Positions 35,142 through 57,711 of a DNA stretch of 64,000 nucleotides are shown here, piece by piece (position 1 is the stretch's first letter; each line of letters begins with the position of its first letter). Source of the DNA: an uncultured Verrucomicrobiae bacterium. Its GTDB lineage: Bacteria; Chlamydiota; Chlamydiia; Chlamydiales; Rhabdochlamydiaceae. The stretch spans positions 1 through 64,000 of the forward strand of contig CAVSUE010000001.1 in the NCBI GenBank assembly GCA_963731265.1, read 5' to 3'. The position numbers and the translations under genes were made by a program. A model generated the notes under the pieces. The model worked only from the letters and a program-made list of their open reading frames with translations, was not told the origin of the DNA and made no database searches.

Positions 35142-36107
35142 CTAAAAGGGAAGCTTTATTTGGTGATGATCCACAAACCAGTCTGTAAATTTTTTCAGCC
35201 CTTCCCGAAGGGAAGTTTTTGGCTGAAATCCTAAAATCTTTTGACTTTTCGAAATGTCTGCATAGGTGATGGGAACATCTCCTGGCGGCATCGGATGCAT
35301 CATCAGGGAGGCTTTTTTCCCAAGGCAATCTTCTAGAATGGAAATGAATTCCAAGACACTGACGGGAGAACAATTGCCCAAATTGAATATCTCATTTGTT
35401 GCGCCGTAGTCGATAGCAGCCATTGTGCCTTTGACGATGTCATCGATGTAAGTGAAGTCGCGCATCAGCTTGCCTTCGCCAAAAACGGGAAGAGGCTCTT
35501 GATTGAGGATCGCTTTGGCAAAGGAATAATAGGCCATGTCGGGGCGTCCCCAGGGACCGTAGACGGTAAAAAATCGGAGGCCTGTGCAAGCAAGCCCATG
35601 CACGTGATGATAAGAGCTGGCGATCAGTTCATTGCAACGTTTTGTCGCGCCATAAAAACTGGCGGGCTTTTCGACGGGATCTGTTTCTGCGAAAGGAATT
35701 TTAGAATTCATTCCGTAAACAGAGGATGAAGAGGCATAAATGAGCTTGATGTGAGGAGATTGCCGCAGGGCTTCCAAAACCTGCACGAAACCGTTTAAGT
35801 TGCTATGCACATAGCTTTCGGGGGCTTTTAATGAATGGCGGACTCCCGCTTGCGCAGCCAAATGAACGAAATGTGTGATGGAATGTTTCTGCAATTCGTT
35901 TTTGATGCTGTTTTGGTCGACGACATCGCAGTCGATGACGGGGATTTCCATCTCTGCAAGGAGTTTTGTCCGCGCGCGTTTGAGTGAAGGATCATAATAG
36001 TCATTAAAGTTATCGCAGCCAAAAACAGCGTCGCCTCTCAACTTCAATGCGCGGGCAACATGAAACCCGATAAAACCGCCGATTCCTGAAATAAATATCC
36101 GTTTCAT
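35142..36107 (-). CDS. NAD-dependent epimerase (UDP-glucuronate 4-epimerase-like)
   Basis: HLAAQAGVR, YASSSSVYG, YGATK and LRFFTVYGPWGRPDMA. Confidence 0.9.
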   Translation of the reverse strand: MKRIFISGIGGFIGFHVARALKLRGDAVFGCDNFNDYYDPSLKRARTKLLAEMEIPVIDCDVVDQNSIKNELQKHSITHFVHLAAQAGVRHSLKAPESYVHSNLNGFVQVLEALRQSPHIKLIYASSSSVYGMNSKIPFAETDPVEKPASFYGATKRCNELIASSYHHVHGLACTGLRFFTVYGPWGRPDMAYYSFAKAILNQEPLPVFGEGKLMRDFTYIDDIVKGTMAAIDYGATNEIFNLGNCSPVSVLEFISILEDCLGKKASLMMHPMPPGDVPITYADISKSQKILGFQPKTSLREGLKKFTDWFVDHHQIKLPF

Positions 36108-36288
36108 AGTATGTTGCCATATCTTTCGGGCACTTTTTGCAAATTTTGGCGCGTCCATAGGTGCCCCCAGCTATTGGACGCGGAAAAATTTTCAAAAATT
36201 GCCTCGAAATCTACGGCAATCTACTATAAACTGAGCACAAAACTCAGGTTACTAAAAAAATTACATCATATTTATCGAACAGCTGCTT

Positions 36289-41049: not shown

Positions 41050-41636
41050 CCTTCATTTAACCAGACCTAAATTTTCTAGCCTTCCTAAAAACAACAATTG
41101 AAATGTTGTATCTTTGAACAGTAAATTTGTTAATACAAATTTCTGTAAAAGGTGGGCCCATGAACAAACTGAAATCCTTCACCGCTTCATTGCTTCTTGC
41201 AACAACACCCACAATGTCCGCTTATCCTCAACAGGCAGTTCGCCATAGATCTTTTCTTGTACAGAAAGTTAACCAAGAGCAACAAATCGGCAAAGATTAC
41301 GTTTTATCTTACGACGACATTCTCCGCCTGCTGGATGAAATTGAATCAGGTGAATTGAAAAAAAAATGCACTCTGGAAGTTAGAATGGTTCCGATATACT
41401 TATACCCGGAACGTTAGCAAAAATCGTTTCCAGAGGAATAAAAGGAACTCAAGAACTCAACGTAATTTATAGAGGTCTGAAAACTGCAGAAAAGACCTTC
41501 CTTCTTGAGTCAGCCACCAGTCTTGAAAGTGGTGCAAAAATTGCAGAAATTGTCCAGCTTGAAAAGAATATCTCTGAATGGTTAGGAGTAATTAATAGTA
41601 GTGCAAAAACATACGCATATGTGAAAATATGCTGTC

Positions 41637-42251
41637 ATGAAGAACACATATTCTCCCGGTGAATTCGGATTATTAATCGGAAGGACGACAAAAACCCTGC
41701 AAAGATGGGATCGTAAGGGCATACTTAAAGCCCACCGTTCCATTACTGGACGGCGCTATTACACCCATGACCAATATGTGGAGACAACTGGACAAAAAGC
41801 CAAAAAACGACAGTTGGTCACTTATTGTCGAGTATCAAGTGCAGGTCAAAAAAAGGATTTGATTTCACAGAAAAATGCTGTAGAATCTTTCTGTTTGACA
41901 GCAGGGAAAATCATCGAAGAGAAGTTGGAAGATATCGGTTCGGGGCTAAACTACAAGCGGAAACATTTCGTACAATTGATGGAAATGGTAGAACGAGGTG
42001 AGGTATCTGAAATTGTAGTGGCCCATAAAGACAGGCTCGTCCGTTTTGGGTTCGAATGGTTCGAAAAATTCTGTAACGACCACGGAGTTTCCATTCTCGT
42101 TATGAATGCGGACTCTCTTTCACCCGAGCAAGAAATGACCAAAGATCTCCTATCAATTATTCATTGTTTTTCCAGTCGCTTATATGGCCTGAGAAAATAC
42201 AAGAAGAAAATCATTGAAATGGCCAAAGACAATGAGAACTGTCAAGCGTAG
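41637..42251 (+). CDS. tnpA: IS607 serine recombinase TnpA
   Basis: N-terminal MerR-like HTH (TLQRWD..G), YCRVSS, DIGSGLNYKR, DRLVRFGFE and FSSRLYG. Confidence 0.95.
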   Translation: MKNTYSPGEFGLLIGRTTKTLQRWDRKGILKAHRSITGRRYYTHDQYVETTGQKAKKRQLVTYCRVSSAGQKKDLISQKNAVESFCLTAGKIIEEKLEDIGSGLNYKRKHFVQLMEMVERGEVSEIVVAHKDRLVRFGFEWFEKFCNDHGVSILVMNADSLSPEQEMTKDLLSIIHCFSSRLYGLRKYKKKIIEMAKDNENCQA

Positions 42252-43761
42252 GTCACTTCCACTCAACGGAAAAAAACAAACAGCTCTTGAAAGCTTATGC
42301 CAGGCATACACTGGTGAAAAACGGCTTTGGCTGCAACACTTCCAAGCCTGGGATTGTCAACCCTATTTAGGAAGGCCCCGAGCAATTCGGGATGAGAAAA
42401 TCAAACAAGGCTATCGTTCACCCCACCAATTGCAGGCTCGTCATTGGAAACTTGCCCTTGATGACGCAGCTGAAACATGGGATAAATATTGGCAGTCCAC
42501 TTTTGTTAAAGTCCGCTTAAAGATCTCCCATCGGAAAGCACTCTCCGAGACGGAGAGCCATTATGCCTATTGGCTTCTGAAAGGTTATTCCCAGTTTTCC
42601 GCCATGATGCAGGGGAAATGCCCGGAGCCGTCCTTTGCCATTGATGATCTCTCCCGGAGGCATATTGCAGGCTATGTGCGGAGGATCACCAGACTCTGCA
42701 AAGGAAAACCACCCACTGTAAAAAAAGCCAGAAGCGTCCGGTTCGATGCCAACTGTTACGATCTTTTCGAGCACAAAGGGCGTCAATACATCAAAATCAT
42801 GTCTCTGATTCCCGGTAAGAGGATTTGTATCCCCTTTTCCGGCAAAGCGCCTATTTCAGGCACAATTACCCTTGTTTTGTCAGAAGGAAACGTCGACTTT
42901 CACATCCCTCAAGAATTAAAAAAGAAGAATCCTCCCAAGACATCTCCCGAAGCTGTTGACTTTGGATATACTGAAGTCATGACGGATACCCAAGGCATTC
43001 GTTATGGGACTCAATTTGGTACAATACTGACACAGGTATCAGAAAATCGGCACCAGAAAATGCAAAAACGTCACAAGCTGCATGCCATGGAAAAGAGACC
43101 GACAACTTCCAATCCCAAAAAGGCAAAATCCCTTCGAAAATATAATCTAGGCAAGCAAAAACACCATGCGGCTGCCAAACGACTCAGGGCCACATTGGAA
43201 AGAGAAATCAACACCTCAATCAACCAACTCATCCAAACGAAAAATCCCTCCCTCTTAATCACAGAAGACTTGCGCCATACTTTTAAGTATAACAAGTCTA
43301 AACAAATGAATAGAAGACTCTCCAGCTGGTTGAGAGGTAAACTACAAGATCGAATTGCTTTTAAAGCGTTGGCGGAAGGTTTCCGTCATGAGCAGGTCAA
43401 TCCGGCCTACGGCTCTCAAAGCTGTCCCTTTTGCGAATTTGTGGATCATCGAAATCGCAAAAACGACCGCTTTCAATGTCTGCATTGTGGACATGAGGAC
43501 ATAGCGGACCGGATTGCCGCACTGAACTATGCCAGAAGATTTGGCGATCCTGAGATCGGACGGTATACGCCTTACCGTCAAGTAAAAACCATTCTTTTGG
43601 ACAGGTTCCACCGCCGATTGGAAACGGGGCAACCCGTGACTGTTCCAGGCAGGACTCTAGAAACCGTAATGGGGATGTATCCACCGTCACCATCGAGACT
43701 AAGTCATAGCCGGAAGAGAGAAATCTCGCGAACCGGACGGTCAATCAGAGAGCGAAATTAA
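42232..43761 (+). CDS. tnpB: RNA-guided endonuclease TnpB (509 aa)
   Basis: RuvC-I AVDFG, RuvC-II ITEDL, Zn ribbon CPFC...CLHC and RuvC-III ADRIAALN. Confidence 0.9.
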   Translation: MRTVKRRSLPLNGKKQTALESLCQAYTGEKRLWLQHFQAWDCQPYLGRPRAIRDEKIKQGYRSPHQLQARHWKLALDDAAETWDKYWQSTFVKVRLKISHRKALSETESHYAYWLLKGYSQFSAMMQGKCPEPSFAIDDLSRRHIAGYVRRITRLCKGKPPTVKKARSVRFDANCYDLFEHKGRQYIKIMSLIPGKRICIPFSGKAPISGTITLVLSEGNVDFHIPQELKKKNPPKTSPEAVDFGYTEVMTDTQGIRYGTQFGTILTQVSENRHQKMQKRHKLHAMEKRPTTSNPKKAKSLRKYNLGKQKHHAAAKRLRATLEREINTSINQLIQTKNPSLLITEDLRHTFKYNKSKQMNRRLSSWLRGKLQDRIAFKALAEGFRHEQVNPAYGSQSCPFCEFVDHRNRKNDRFQCLHCGHEDIADRIAALNYARRFGDPEIGRYTPYRQVKTILLDRFHRRLETGQPVTVPGRTLETVMGMYPPSPSRLSHSRKREISRTGRSIRERN

Positions 43762-43995
43762 AAATAAACACGTTTGAACACGTTTTTAGGAACAGAAGGT
43801 GCTAAGCTTATTCGAAATGAAGTTGGGGATTCTGTTTTCATTTCAAAAGACGGATTGAGGTGTGTGAGGTTCGATTTTAATAAAACATATCCTCATAGTA
43901 ATCCTCACGGTCACTTCGAAGTTAAAATTGAAGGTGAATGGGTAAAATCTGGACCGATCTACCCAATAGATGTACACCATAATTAGGCAAAAACG

Positions 43996-44241
43996 ATGAT
44001 AATTTATAATGTAGATACAGACAAAAAAGTAAATAAGATCATCCTTTATTTGACTTCTGATGAAGCACAGGAAATGAAAGGCTCTCTTGAATTAATTATA
44101 AAGAACAATGAAAAACACCATCATGAACATATTCCTGATAGAGAAGACTTTAAAAGAGAAATTACCATTTGTATATACAAAGAAGACAACTTATCAAGCT
44201 TTGACGAACGTTCAAAGAAACTCATTCTTAATGATGAATAA
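43996..44241 (+). CDS. small acidic protein, candidate immunity protein
   Basis: 81 aa, starts 9 nt after the toxin-like stop; LYLT.DEA...HHHEH. Confidence 0.6.
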   Translation: MIIYNVDTDKKVNKIILYLTSDEAQEMKGSLELIIKNNEKHHHEHIPDREDFKREITICIYKEDNLSSFDERSKKLILNDE

Positions 44242-54448: not shown

Positions 54449-55230
54449 TCAGATCATTTGCAAACTCTTTCGACTGCAGCTCCCTGTTCGTAGACGAAAT
54501 CTGCTTTCAGAACGGGGCTTTGCTCCCTTCCATTTGGCTGCGCCTTGCTGGCGCACCTTTGTTGAAGTAACGGGCTTTATCAATAAAGAGCCGAGTAGAT
54601 TGTGGTAAGAGAGGAATAGGATAGCAACGGACGAGGGTCAAGCCTCCTAAATGTTTAAAAATGAGGCGCTTGTGATTTTTTCTGCCATTGTAATTTTGCA
54701 TAATAGGAAGCAGAGGTTGTGTATTTTTAACGCTATTTCACTCCTCCCAAGCAAAGCTATTTTCTTTTTGGCTACGGGGTACTCGAAAATCGACTTGGCT
54801 TAAGGCAACTTACCCGGAAGCATATTGGGTGGACCTGTTAGATCCTGAATTATTCAGATTATTGTCAGCAGGCCCTGAAAGACTTCGTCTCTTACTTGAA
54901 GAGACCCCGAATAAAAAAATTGTGGTGATTGACGAAGTGCAAAAAATTCCCGAGCTGCTCAACGTTGTCCATAGTCTGATTGAAGAAAAAAGAGGGTAGC
55001 AGATTATTCTGACAGGCTCCAGTTCAAGGAAGCTCAAGCAACAAGGGGTGAATTTGTTAGCAGGCAGGGCCCTTCTAAAGCATATGCCCCCCTTTTTTGC
55101 AGGGGAGCTAGGAAGTTCGTTTGATTTAGCCAAGCATCTGCGTCATGGAATGCTATCTATTGTGATTGATTCTGAAGCGCCAGAAGAGGTCCTTCGCTGT
55201 TCCTAAAAACGTGTTCAAACGTGTTTATTT

Positions 55231-56760
55231 TTAATTTTGCTCTCTGATTGACCGTCCGGTTCGCGAGATTTCTCTCTTCCGGCTATGACGGGGTCTCGAT
55301 GGAGACGGTGGACGCATCTCCATTACGGTTTCTAGAGTCCTGCCTGGAACAGTCACGGGTTGCCCCGTTTCCAATCGGCGATGAAACCTGTCCAAAAGAA
55401 TGGTTTTTACTTGACGGTAAGGCGTATACCGTCCGATCTCAGGATCGCCAAATCTTCTGGCATAGTTCAGTGCGGCAATCCGGTCCGATATGTCCTCATG
55501 TCCACAATGCAGACATTGAAAGCGGTCGTTTTTGCGATTTCGATGATCCACAAATTCGCAAAAGGGACAGCTTTGAGAGCCGTAGGCCGGATTGACCTGC
55601 TCATGACGGAAACCTTCCGCCAACGCTTTAAAAGCAATTCGATCTTGTAGTTTACCTCTCAACCAGCTGGAGAGTCTTCTATTCATTTGTTTAGACTTGT
55701 CATACTTGAAAGTATGGCGCAAGTCTTCTGTGATTAAGAGGGAGGGATTTTTCGTTTGGATGAGTTGATTGATGGACGTGTTGATTTCTCTTTCCAATGT
55801 GGCCCTGAATCGTTTGGCAGCCGCATGGTGTTTTTGCTTGCCTAGATTATATTTTCTAAGGGATTTTGCCTTTTTGGGATTGGAAGTTGTCGGTTTCTTT
55901 TCCATGGCATGCAGCTTGTGACGTTTTTGCATTTTCTGGTGCCGATTTTCTGATACCTGTGTCAGTATTGTACCAAATTGAGTCCCATAACGAATGCCTT
56001 GGGTATCCGTCATGACTTCAGTATATCCAAAGTCAACAGCTTCGGGAGATGTCTTGGGAGGATTCTTCTTTTTTAATTCTTGAGGGATGTGAAAGTCGAC
56101 GTTTCCTTCTGACAAAACAAGGGTAATTGTGCCTGAAATAGGCGCTTTGCCGGATAAGGGGATACAAATCCTCTTACCGGGAATCAGAGACATGATTTTG
56201 ATGTACTGACGCCCTTTGTGCTCGAAAAGATCGTAACAGTTGGCATCGAACCGGACGCTTCTGGCTTTTTTTACAGTGGGTGGTTTTCCTTTGCAGAGTC
56301 TGGTGATCCTCCGCACATAGCCTGCAATATGCCTCCGGGAGAGATCATCAATGGGAAAGGACGGCTCCGGGCATTTCCCCTGCATCATGGCGGAAAACTG
56401 GGAATAACCTTTCAGAAGCCAATAGGCATAATGGCTCTCCGTCTCGGAGAGTGCTTTCCGATGGGAGATCTTTAAGCGGACTTTAACAAAAGTGGACTGC
56501 CAATATTTATCCCATGTTTCAGCTGCGTCATCAAGGGCAAGTTTCCAATGACGAGCCTGCAATTGGTTGGGTGAACGATAGCCTTGTTTGATTTTCTCAT
56601 CGCGAATCGCTCGGGGCCTTCCTAAATAGGGTTGACAATCCCAGGCTTGGAAGTGTTGCAGCCAAAGCCGTTTTTCACCAGTGTATGCCTGGCATAAGCT
56701 TTCAAGAGTTGTTTGTTTTTTTCCGTTGAGTGGAAGTGACCTACGCTTGACAGTTCTCAT
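55231..56760 (-). CDS. tnpB: RNA-guided endonuclease TnpB (509 aa)
   Basis: Near-identical to 42232..43761; D/E/D triad and Zn ribbon intact. Confidence 0.9.
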   Translation of the reverse strand: MRTVKRRSLPLNGKKQTTLESLCQAYTGEKRLWLQHFQAWDCQPYLGRPRAIRDEKIKQGYRSPNQLQARHWKLALDDAAETWDKYWQSTFVKVRLKISHRKALSETESHYAYWLLKGYSQFSAMMQGKCPEPSFPIDDLSRRHIAGYVRRITRLCKGKPPTVKKARSVRFDANCYDLFEHKGRQYIKIMSLIPGKRICIPLSGKAPISGTITLVLSEGNVDFHIPQELKKKNPPKTSPEAVDFGYTEVMTDTQGIRYGTQFGTILTQVSENRHQKMQKRHKLHAMEKKPTTSNPKKAKSLRKYNLGKQKHHAAAKRFRATLEREINTSINQLIQTKNPSLLITEDLRHTFKYDKSKQMNRRLSSWLRGKLQDRIAFKALAEGFRHEQVNPAYGSQSCPFCEFVDHRNRKNDRFQCLHCGHEDISDRIAALNYARRFGDPEIGRYTPYRQVKTILLDRFHRRLETGQPVTVPGRTLETVMEMRPPSPSRPRHSRKREISRTGRSIREQN

Positions 56761-57021
56761 TGTCTTTTGCCATTTAGATAATCTTTTTCTTGCAAAAAGA
56801 TTCTACAGCATTTTTCTATGAGATCAAATCCTTTTTTTGACCTACGCTCAACGCTCTGCAATAAGTGACCAACTATCGATTTTTGGGTTTTAGCCCAGTT
56901 ATCTGCACATACTGATCATGCGTATAACAACGCCGGTGGGCCTACGATCGTACCTTTATAGCATTTTCGTCGTCTGTCGGATTCACGAATCGAATTCATA
57001 TGGAGAATATGTGTTCTTCAT
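56741..57021 (-). pseudogene. tnpA: decayed IS607 tnpA
   Basis: The start (ATGAAGAACACATATTCTCC) and end match copy 1; large internal deletion and stop codons. Confidence 0.85.
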
Positions 57022-57711
57022 GACCGCATATTTTCACATATGCGTATGTTTTTGCACTACTATTAACTACTCTTATGTAGGCATCTATCTTAAGGAAGAG
57101 GTACAAGCGGAAGGGATTGTTCGCAATGTTGGGGATTTTGCTAGATTTTTGGAAGCGATGAGTTTTTCTCATGGGTCGCTGATTAATTCTTCAAATATTT
57201 CAAGGGAATGCCAATAGCACGGAAGACTGTCGATAGCTATTTATCCCTGTTAGGAGATTTACTCCTCTCCTTTCATTTGCAAGTTTTTCGAAAAAAAGCC
57301 AAAAGAAGCCTCATTCGTCATTCAAAATTCTATTTTTTTGATGCGGGTGTCTATAATTACATTCGACCTAAAAGTTTTTACGATGTCCAAAGTGAAACCG
57401 AGGGCGCTGCTCTCGAGAGATTAGTCGCTCACCACTTGAAGGGATGGGTTGATGCGCAATTAGAACAATACAGTCTTCACTTTTGGCAAACGACCTCTAA
57501 TGTGGAAGTGGATTTTATTGTTATGGGTCCTGATTGTTTTTATGCTATTGAAGTGAAGAATGGAACAGTCATTCACCCAGGAGATCTCCGGGGGTTAGAG
57601 CTATTTAAAGAAGATTATCCGGAAGCGACTCCAATTTTGCTTTATCGAGGAAGCATAGAATCAAATAGAGAGGCATTCTTTGCTGCCCGGTAGATGAATT
57701 TCTTTTACAAA

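Follow-up and report, generated by a model that had tools for sequence, protein, structure and literature searches.

An IS607-family insertion sequence of environmental Chlamydiota with an AG crossover, RRGAG insertion sites and a predicted TnpB-omegaRNA system

The DNA analysed here, the first 64,000 nucleotides of contig CAVSUE010000001.1 (the window), carries two copies, A1 and B1, of an IS607-family element that is best explained, at a probability of roughly 0.8, as a recently active insertion sequence that inserts at the AG of RRGAG sites and would home with the aid of TnpB and an omegaRNA. This explanation is carried by the anatomy of the element, its ends, insertion sites and target motif, the covariation of its RNA and the intact catalytic residues of its TnpB. 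Judged by sequence, the element is of a known class, IS607 with TnpB, and reveals no new mechanism, its insertion and cutting activities being predicted. The features of the two copies are:

41584..41588, + strand: left-flank motif AGGAG (RRGAG) of A1, predicted TAM, with the AG core at 41587-41588
41589..43795, + strand: IS607-family element, copy A1, 2207 bp, ends defined from nine genomic copies and empty sites
41589..41656, + strand: left end of A1, 68 nt, presumed TnpA binding region
41637..42251, + strand: tnpA, 204-aa serine recombinase, RVSS motif with Ser67
42232..43761, + strand: tnpB, 509 aa from ATG, 20-nt overlap with the end of tnpA
43637..43795, + strand: omegaRNA scaffold of A1, at least 159 nt, conserved GGUCAAUCAGAGAGCGAAA core, covariance model R1
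43767..43785, + strand: two subterminal direct repeats AACACGTTT (43767-75 and 43777-85) inside the 3' part of the omegaRNA
43796..43815, + strand: predicted guide of A1 (right flank)
55177..55196, - strand: predicted guide of B1 (right flank)
55197..57069, - strand: copy B1, non-autonomous derivative, 1873 bp, with left end, tnpA remnant, intact tnpB, omegaRNA and right end
55197..55355, - strand: omegaRNA scaffold of B1 (model R1, 151.6 bits)
55231..56760, - strand: tnpB of B1, 509 aa, intact
56761..57069, - strand: left end and tnpA remnant of B1, ~76% identity to A1
57070..57074, - strand: left-flank motif AAGAG of B1, predicted TAM

A1 combines a tnpA for a serine recombinase with a tnpB of 509 aa and a scaffold for an omegaRNA that runs to the right end. 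The initial annotation had recognized an IS607-family element with TnpB, which is backed by the family match of TnpA and the features of TnpB, but its span of 41581..43815 takes in left-flank bases and the 20-nt guide, so that the element itself is confined to 41589..43795. TnpA reaches 207.6 bits against the NCBIfam IS607 family transposase model (cutoff 110), and Pfam places MerR_1 at residues 5-47 (8.5e-7) and Resolvase at residues 61-187 (8.6e-19), the IS607 layout of an N-terminal MerR-type HTH and a C-terminal catalytic domain; on these matches it is a clear IS607 transposase. The genome holds nine copies with differing flanks, five full and four with a decayed tnpA, the tnpB frame being open in 8/9 and the tnpA frame in 5/9. 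B1 lacks an intact tnpA, of which alignment to A1 reveals only a decayed remnant with deletions of 27 nt, 6 nt and ~306 nt and loss of the catalytic domain. The 68-nt left end shows two differences between full and tnpA-decayed copies and contains short A/T-rich repeats resembling those at the right end; its role in TnpA binding is presumed because of the description in Chen et al. 2018 (PMC6188088). Presumably the AACACGTTT repeats, which alter in step with each other across relatives, are TnpA sites as well. A comparison of the two ends (TAATTAAT.. on the left and ..GGAACAG on the right) yields no terminal inverted repeats. Among short contigs from four DNA sequencing runs, several end at 43795, one (X3) runs on from the element into a different flank and one carries a tnpA-deleted junction from 41890 to 42200, while none represents the excised (empty) form.

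TnpB is a divergent member of its family, for which Pfam returns the TNB domain alone (7.3e-13), and which scores 79.1 bits against NCBIfam guided_TnpB (E 3.9e-22, cutoff 100) and 22.9 bits against IS607_TnpB (cutoff 350). Its D/E/D triad is intact, as first annotated, with D243, E345 and D426 invariant across 19 aligned homologues, in which the zinc-ribbon cysteines (CxxC..CxxC; C398, C401, C416, C419) are invariant too, and in the alignment to AsCas12f, D426 falls in the region of the RuvC-III Asp. A PDB sequence search matches the C-terminal RuvC/zinc-ribbon part only. The AF2 model (mean pLDDT 82.8) is consistent with a TnpB/Cas12f fold, and Foldseek matches it to AsCas12f (1.1e-13), ISFba1 TnpB (1.3e-10), ISDra2 TnpB (1.1e-9) and Fanzor2 (3.3e-8). 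Nuclease activity of this TnpB is predicted. Between the stop codon and the right end there are 34 nt, in agreement with the ~35 nt noted before. Its description as a large TnpB holds for the 509 aa as such, but is partly an artefact, because the scaffold of the omegaRNA doubles as the coding sequence of the last ~30 residues (479-509), for which disorder is predicted; the listed homologues mostly measure 480-550 aa.

That the 3' region encodes a structured RNA is supported by covariance model R1, which in its own genome finds exactly the nine right ends (9/9), and in addition 20 related loci outside its training set. RNAalifold yields 62 pairs for the scaffold, 22 of them with compensatory changes. 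In the three conserved helices (21 sequences) 96.2% of the cells pair, as against 33-43% with the partner columns slid, double changes occur in 9/19 pairs, and 0/500 shuffles match the observed values. The scaffold is closed by pairing of 5' CUGUUCC (43640-43646) with the terminal GGAACAG (43789-43795), and this terminal helix covaries (GGAACAG/CUGUUCC, GAAACAG/CUGUUUC, GGAACGG/CCGUUCC), a perfect complement of at least 6 nt to the terminal strand being present in 18/20 elements. Compensatory changes of this kind support an omegaRNA of ~160 nt, and more covarying hairpins are located upstream of the scaffold at ~43565-43636. A central pseudoknot (CGAG/CUCG with CCGG/CCGG) appears plausible by eye, but is not claimed since its first helix never varies. 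Rfam matches between 41300 and 44100 of the window, at E up to 1, stay at chance level (mir-153, E 0.19; RSV_RNA, 0.21), and the 15 related loci searched give one tRNA and weak miRNA-like or riboswitch matches; the RAGATH-18 motif is absent from both sets. The guides initially predicted for the two copies equal the true right-flank starts. The only perfect genomic match of the A1 guide is its own site, preceded by GAACAG, and for none of the nine guides does the genome contain a match with up to two mismatches behind RRGAG.

The six bases 5' of the left ends read TAGGAG in A1 and TAAGAG in B1, as reported at the outset. GAG precedes the element at 34/34 left junctions (nine from the own genome and 25 from relatives, in 11 genomes or MAGs), the left boundary being proven by empty sites for own-genome copies and anchored at GAG in the relatives, because the common sequence continues through GAG. 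A purine occupies position -4 in 34/34 and position -5 in 31/34 of these junctions. Of the proposed TARGAG target, the purine-rich motif ending in AG stands, but T at -6 occurs in only 9/34 and A at -5 in 21/34; since -6 is without bias, the motif is RRGAG. Genome-wide, 8.2% of AG dinucleotides have RRG on their 5' side, compared with RRGAG at 9/9 copies, which places the element at RRGAG beyond chance. The purine-rich left-flank motif is, as first suggested, the natural candidate for the TAM, and insertion after RRGAG makes the cutting rule of TnpB predictable, with RRGAG as its putative TAM. The right end, AACAG, differs from the target motif solely at -3 (C for G), and ACAG closes every copy of this genome and those of nearly all relatives, as far as ~35% TnpB identity. 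The related lineage L054, represented in its genome by a single full copy and two copies truncated at the 5' end, ends in CGG.

An unlikely alternative, though the one that deserves most weight, accepts that the element moves as proposed and takes the flank motif to be the target choice of TnpA only, with a TnpB that is not an active RRGAG-dependent nuclease, whether inactive, a repressor-like derivative or specific for another TAM. The divergence of TnpB, below the guided_TnpB cutoff and with TNB as its sole Pfam domain, speaks for this possibility, as does ISXfa1, in which the specificities of TnpA and TnpB are reported to overlap only in part (Yoon et al. 2023, bioRxiv 10.1101/2023.08.09.552727). 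However, none of 19 homologues departs from the catalytic triad or the zinc ribbon, intact tnpB is retained in copies without tnpA, the omegaRNA is under structural selection, and the departure of the right end from the motif at -3 alone is sensible only if the motif is the TAM, all of which argues against an inactive TnpB. The RRG preference itself could reflect either the choice of TnpA or retention driven by TnpB.

The crossover can be read directly from empty sites. Uninterrupted orthologous sites exist for A1 in G017 and G023 and for B1 in G002, G013 and G012, and A2, another copy in the genome, has uninterrupted counterparts in five paralogues and G003. In G023, the empty site of A1 reads ..GGCTAGGAG and then directly AAGGTACTAG.., and the intact G017 protein spans the site as ..NWLGEGAKF... 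All of these sites have the exact length for simple insertion, with a single shared AG and zero target duplication, which confirms the proposal that excision at AG restores the host sequence of both window copies. AG is the sole identity between left and right junctions in 9/9 copies and occurs once per empty site, so that the element has a 2-bp core matching at target and right terminus, which is AG, as first proposed, and not GG; this arrangement fits the 2-bp crossover of a serine recombinase. A 2026 review describes the IS607 family as inserting strictly at GG, against which the empty sites document an AG crossover directly. In the review PMC13565253 a GG core is ascribed to "most members" of that family, which makes it typical and not defining. 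The statement that characterised IS607 elements recombine at GG is likewise incomplete, as Ren et al. 2024 (PMC11061315) report 5'-AGGAG or 5'-GAGGG TAMs.

In a further copy, A3, GAG is separated from the left end by an additional C, which is left unexplained by a clean AG crossover, and the empty site of this copy is confounded by a ~170-bp MITE adjoining the right end. For A4, the left flank used as query returned no close orthologue. An exchange of 1 bp, or a staggered one, displaced by one base, in which the AG identity is merely coincidental to RRGAG and AACAG, is very improbable: it could draw on the C of A3 and on the unexpected altered-core junction products of Zedaveinyte et al. (bioRxiv 10.1101/2023.11.20.567912), but AG is the only identity at all nine pairs of junctions, the other eight left junctions (8/9) are exact, and serine recombinases exchange across 2 bp (Chen et al. 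2018, PMC6188088). That GAG or RRGAG is the element's own start, leaving neither target specificity nor an AG crossover, is scarcely credible, since, although the sequence common to the copies crosses GAG and copy comparison alone cannot set the boundary, the empty sites of A1, B1 and A2 each hold the motif once and have the length expected for insertion downstream of it, and positions -4 and -5 vary between A and G like target bases.

For the preferred reading, an IS607-family element with RRGAG/AG insertion and TnpB-omegaRNA homing, we infer the TAM identity, the nuclease activity, homing and the source of the RRG preference. TnpA would excise the element as a circle and insert it by 2-bp crossover at the AG of 5'-RRGAG sites without duplication. 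TnpB, with ~470 folded residues and a disordered tail, is the predicted binding partner of an omegaRNA of ~160 nt or more, whose transcript would run from the 3' part of tnpB past the right end into flanking DNA. Once the element is excised, the donor joint would present RRGAG directly 5' of the guide-matching flank, so that TnpB could cut the rejoined donor site and the element would be copied back (restorative homing). Occupied sites would be spared, as AACAG differs from the motif at -3. The four copies that lack tnpA keep left end, tnpB, omegaRNA and right end, and because of this loss would have to be mobilised in trans by the full copies.

The lineage of ~500-aa TnpBs linked to serine recombinases is common in environmental Chlamydiota and also occurs in Nitrospirota, Firmicutes and others; a characterised member of this clade was not found in the literature. 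We tentatively propose, at a little short of even odds, that it is a so far uncharacterised clade of OMEGA systems whose omegaRNAs form a family of their own outside Rfam, the recombination core being part of the helix that closes the RNA. If so, a physical link would tie the crossover dinucleotide of TnpA to the TAM of TnpB and to the fold of the RNA, and a change in one would go with changes in the others. In one lineage the end has gone from CAG to CGG, with a compensating change in the 5' strand. G009 harbours at least 11 copies of gene-less mini-elements consisting only of the ends and a 104-nt minimal omegaRNA, which would then be natural "guide-only" parasites of the system. The element offers a fully specified, testable TnpB system, comprising the protein, a ~160-nt scaffold, a TAM, RRGAG, predicted from 34 naturally occupied sites, and the natural guides of nine copies. 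For chlamydial genomics, it explains why assemblies break and genes are disrupted at many places in this genus.

Cas12f proteins are CRISPR-associated and dimeric and employ crRNA/tracrRNA. Both in structure and in sequence, the RuvC/zinc-ribbon half of the present TnpB is matched best by AsCas12f (7WJU, 8J12 and related entries), but this TnpB lies in a transposon context with no CRISPR array. Closer in context are the ISFba1-type elements of Ren et al. 2024 (Cell Res; PMC11061315), which share a serine TnpA and a guide from the right flank, and for which TAMs of 5'-AGGAG (18/22 strains) or 5'-GAGGG are reported. Their AGGAG adjoins the left end and falls within RRGAG, so that a purine-rich, SD-like TAM is already known for IS607 TnpBs. 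The ISFba1 TnpB structure (8IAZ), solved in the same study, is related in fold, but gives no sequence-level match in the PDB search, and ISFba1-type TnpBs are described as 330-433 aa long, compared with 509 aa here, with a RAGATH-18-derived reRNA that has no counterpart in the present element or its 15 related loci, and with hosts among gut Firmicutes rather than environmental Chlamydiota. H. pylori IS607 and ISXfa1 (Chen et al. 2018, PMC6188088; Yoon et al. 2023), as described there, resemble the present element in the N-terminal HTH and C-terminal catalytic domain of TnpA, the lack of inverted repeats and duplication, short direct end repeats within the reRNA and pairing of guide-adjacent bases with an upstream segment, but have a GG core and a GGG TAM, and the present TnpB falls far below the IS607_TnpB cutoff. 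CboIStron (Zedaveinyte et al., bioRxiv 10.1101/2023.11.20.567912) is likewise reported to be excised scarlessly as a circle, with a 2-bp core common to target and right end, a scaffold ending in core bases and persisting tnpA-less derivatives, but has a GG core, a TGGG motif and a group I intron, whereas the core of the present element is AG and Rfam returns no intron match for it. In CboIStron the TAM equals the TnpA target and the right end mimics it save at -3 (TGGG and TCGG), and ISXfa1 distinguishes self from non-self at the same position (GGG and CGG; Yoon et al. 2023). RRGAG and AACAG follow the same logic as these characterised IS607 TnpBs, and would extend the -3 rule to a third core/TAM pair.

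The IS607/TnpB element described in the initial annotation was confirmed and extended by nine genomic copies, empty sites, 34 left junctions and a predicted omegaRNA scaffold. Two of the copies lie in the window, namely the full copy A1 and the copy B1, in which tnpA is decayed.

IS607-family features of the window
41589..43795, + strand: IS607-family element, copy A1 (2207 bp, three parts)
41637..42251, + strand: tnpA (204 aa)
42232..43761, + strand: tnpB (509 aa), overlapping tnpA
55197..57069, - strand: copy B1, the window's second copy

In TnpA, Pfam finds a MerR-type HTH and, C-terminal to it, a resolvase catalytic domain, and the protein scores 207.6 bits against the NCBIfam IS607 family transposase model (cutoff 110). 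TnpB is divergent: Pfam reports only a Cas12f1-like TNB domain (7.3e-13), the NCBIfam guided_TnpB model reaches E 3.9e-22 with 79.1 bits, under its cutoff of 100, and the IS607_TnpB model gives only 22.9 bits. Alignment of 19 homologues (38-85% identity) shows no variation at D243, E345, D426 and four cysteines of the zinc ribbon. An AlphaFold model predicts a TnpB/Cas12f fold (mean pLDDT 82.8), with AsCas12f (1.1e-13), ISFba1 TnpB (8IAZ, 1.3e-10), ISDra2 TnpB (8H1J, 1.1e-9) and Fanzor2 (3.3e-8) as the best Foldseek matches. Since residues 479-509 are predicted to be disordered and are encoded by the stretch forming the RNA scaffold, the folded TnpB is nearer 470 aa; the stop codon lies 34 nt from the right end of A1. 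TnpB belongs to a large family: among the 8000 scored candidates, 263 proteins were found at E 1e-3 or better, those named coming from Rhabdochlamydiaceae or Chlamydiales MAGs, and a 50%-identity library gave 236 representatives at E 1e-30 or better and 3935 at 1e-3 or better.

The genome (2.34 Mb, two contigs) contains nine copies, each with different flanks. The five full copies (A1-A5) are 98.6-99.2% identical to A1. The other four (B1-B4) share with them 68 nt at the start of the left end, with two differences, and have a tnpB and right end 96.0-98.7% identical to A1, while their tnpA remnant is ~76% identical and has lost the catalytic domain through three deletions that are identical in all four. 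Because these deletions are common to copies at four different sites, the B copies spread after the loss of tnpA, and were presumably mobilised in trans by TnpA from the full copies. A B-type deleted junction is also present in one contig of an independent public run. B3 is additionally broken by ~1.2 kb of foreign DNA in its tnpB (G000:C1:861885-863104, where G000 is the window's own genome), which is probably another insertion sequence; it encodes two ORFs of 96 and 325 codons, and ~306 nt of tnpB are lost at the site. Shorter elements were seen as well. In a genome of the same genus, G009, a gene-less mini-element of ~363 bp (L145, G009:C45:67300-68200) has the same left-end start and right end, is inserted after ..AAGAG and carries a compact 104-nt omegaRNA that keeps helices P1-P3; at least 11 short mini-element copies were found there by the RNA model. 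A separate MITE-like repeat of ~170 bp with terminal inverted repeats, which matches itself on both strands (window 36102..36251), has more than 15 matching places on both contigs, one of which (G000:C1:684569-684743) adjoins the right end of A3 and has no counterpart at the orthologous position in G003 and G005.

All copies start with TA(A/G)TTAATA.. and end with ..TTTTTAGGAACAG, followed by mutually unrelated right flanks. The empty site of A1 in the related genome G023 reads ..GGCTAGGAG and immediately AAGGTACTAG.., and the corresponding site in G017 is diverged, is of the same length and encodes an intact protein (..NWLGEGAKF..). B1 has empty sites of the expected length in three related genomes (G013, G002 and G012). 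A2 lies within a multi-copy gene, with empty sites in five paralogues and one orthologue, where ..GTTGAAGAG is directly followed by the homologue of its right flank. These uninterrupted sites show simple insertion without duplication. The left junction reads RRG-AG-TAATT and the right junction AAC-AG-flank; they have nothing but AG in common, and AG is present once per empty site, as a 2-bp serine-recombinase crossover would predict and in keeping with the AG core proposed in the initial annotation. At the left junction of A3 (G000:C1:682361-682362) an extra, unexplained C separates the target GAG from the element's initial T, and the right flank of A3 starts with CTAATTAAC, similar to the element's own left-end start. 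The left flank of A2 (G000:C1:448216-448615) belongs to a gene family with ~20 paralogous stretches in the genome. A1 splits the C-terminal part of a gene (flanking parts at 41420..41588 and 43796..44241) that is intact in G017, where it has at least 563 aa and an 82-aa ORF lies downstream of it; the upstream part in the window also appears truncated. The arrangement is reminiscent of a toxin-like C-terminal module with a small partner gene, and the 70-aa and 81-aa ORFs at the split gene had no Pfam match.

Of the 34 left junctions, this genome contributes nine and 10 further genomes or MAGs the remaining 25. The boundary in relatives was set after GAG by analogy with the copies of this genome, for which alone empty sites provide the proof. 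Positions -3 to -1 are GAG in all 34, position -4 is A or G in all 34, and position -5 is A or G in 31 and T in three, while position -6 is unbiased (T 9, A 11, G 9, C 5); just 8.2% of the AG dinucleotides in the genome are preceded by RRG. The target motif read from these junctions is thus RRGAG, and the TARGAG originally proposed was over-specified. In two copies from Sutterella MAGs (L075 and L078, ~33% TnpB identity) the right ends are ..ACAG/..GCAG and ..TAAAG/..TTAAG precede the shared sequence at the left junctions, so that the AG core may be kept with a different upstream motif.

The last ~160 nt of the element are conserved well beyond the coding requirement. Relatives at 35-45% TnpB identity retain three segments: 5'-GACUGUUCCGGGCAGGACUCUAGA, the core GGUCAAUCNGAGAGCGAAAC and the terminal GGAACAG. 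RNAalifold predicted 62 pairs from 11 close sequences, 22 of them with compensatory changes. When three helices were counted on 21 diverse sequences, 96.2% of the cells pair, compared with 33-43% in a control with slid partner columns, and 9 of the 19 pairs show double changes; none of 500 shuffles reached these values. In the outer helix, CUGUUCC (43640-43646) pairs with the seven terminal bases at the right end and covaries as GAAACAG/CUGUUUC and, in one lineage, GGAACGG/CCGUUCC. A perfect complement of at least 6 nt is present in 18 of 20 elements, the exceptions being L075 and L058. A covariance model built from these sequences later located a 5' strand in L058 that has one mismatch. This model finds precisely the nine right ends in the genome and no other match there; it has matches in five of the 41 related genomes, counting this one, and gives 40 matches in 79 related loci, 20 of them outside the model-building set. 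Three loci of one Acidobacteriota MAG (L054, L073 and L077) end in GGAACGG instead of GGAACAG, with CCGUUCC opposite it on the 5' side of the closing helix; this MAG carries a single full copy plus two others truncated at the 5' side, of which only the final ~450-490 nt remain.

By analogy with characterised systems, TnpA would excise the element as a circle and rejoin the donor, setting RRGAG immediately before what had been the right flank. An omegaRNA whose 3' part is this flank would then guide TnpB to cut the rejoined site, and repair from a sister copy would restore the element. The occupied site would be spared, as the right end AACAG differs from RRGAG at position -3 only, which is also where the motifs differ in CboIStron (TGGG versus TCGG) and ISXfa1 (GGG versus CGG). 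Consistent with such protection, the sole perfect genomic match of each of the nine guides is its own AACAG-flanked site, and no match with up to two mismatches lies behind RRGAG in this genome. In four A2 paralogues GAAGAG is kept, and the sequence after it has three mismatches relative to the opening 16 nt of the A2 guide.

In the accessible text of the IS607/TnpB literature, no description was found of an AG crossover demonstrated through empty sites or of this chlamydial TnpB clade of ~500 aa, although the supplements of Ren et al. and Altae-Tran et al. 2023 may list members. Use of a GG core by characterised IS607 elements, the premise of the initial annotation, is correct for H. pylori IS607, ISXfa1 and CboIStron (PMC6188088; bioRxiv 10.1101/2023.08.09.552727; bioRxiv 10.1101/2023.11.20.567912), and a 2026 review has the family inserting strictly at or after GG (PMC13565253). 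The premise is incomplete in view of the IS607 TnpBs with RAGATH-18-derived RNAs, for which the TAMs 5'-AGGAG (18/22 strains) or 5'-GAGGG, AG-rich motifs beside putative left ends and the ISFba1 structure were reported (Ren et al., 2024; PMC11061315). A purine-rich, SD-like TAM was therefore already known. The earlier interpretation stands in outline, but its claim to novelty relies on an outdated premise. The omegaRNA, which matched no Rfam family, RAGATH-18 included, in the element region and related loci, is new as a family, but not in design, since both the pairing of guide-adjacent bases with upstream sequence and TnpA repeats inside the RNA have been described for ISDra2 and ISXfa1 (Yoon et al., bioRxiv 10.1101/2023.08.09.552727). 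The element differs from the RAGATH-18/ISFba1 group in its TnpB of 509 aa, compared with 330-433 aa, which has no PDB sequence match to 8IAZ, and in an RNA without RAGATH-18, and represents a well-defined system with a clean, testable TAM prediction, RRGAG.
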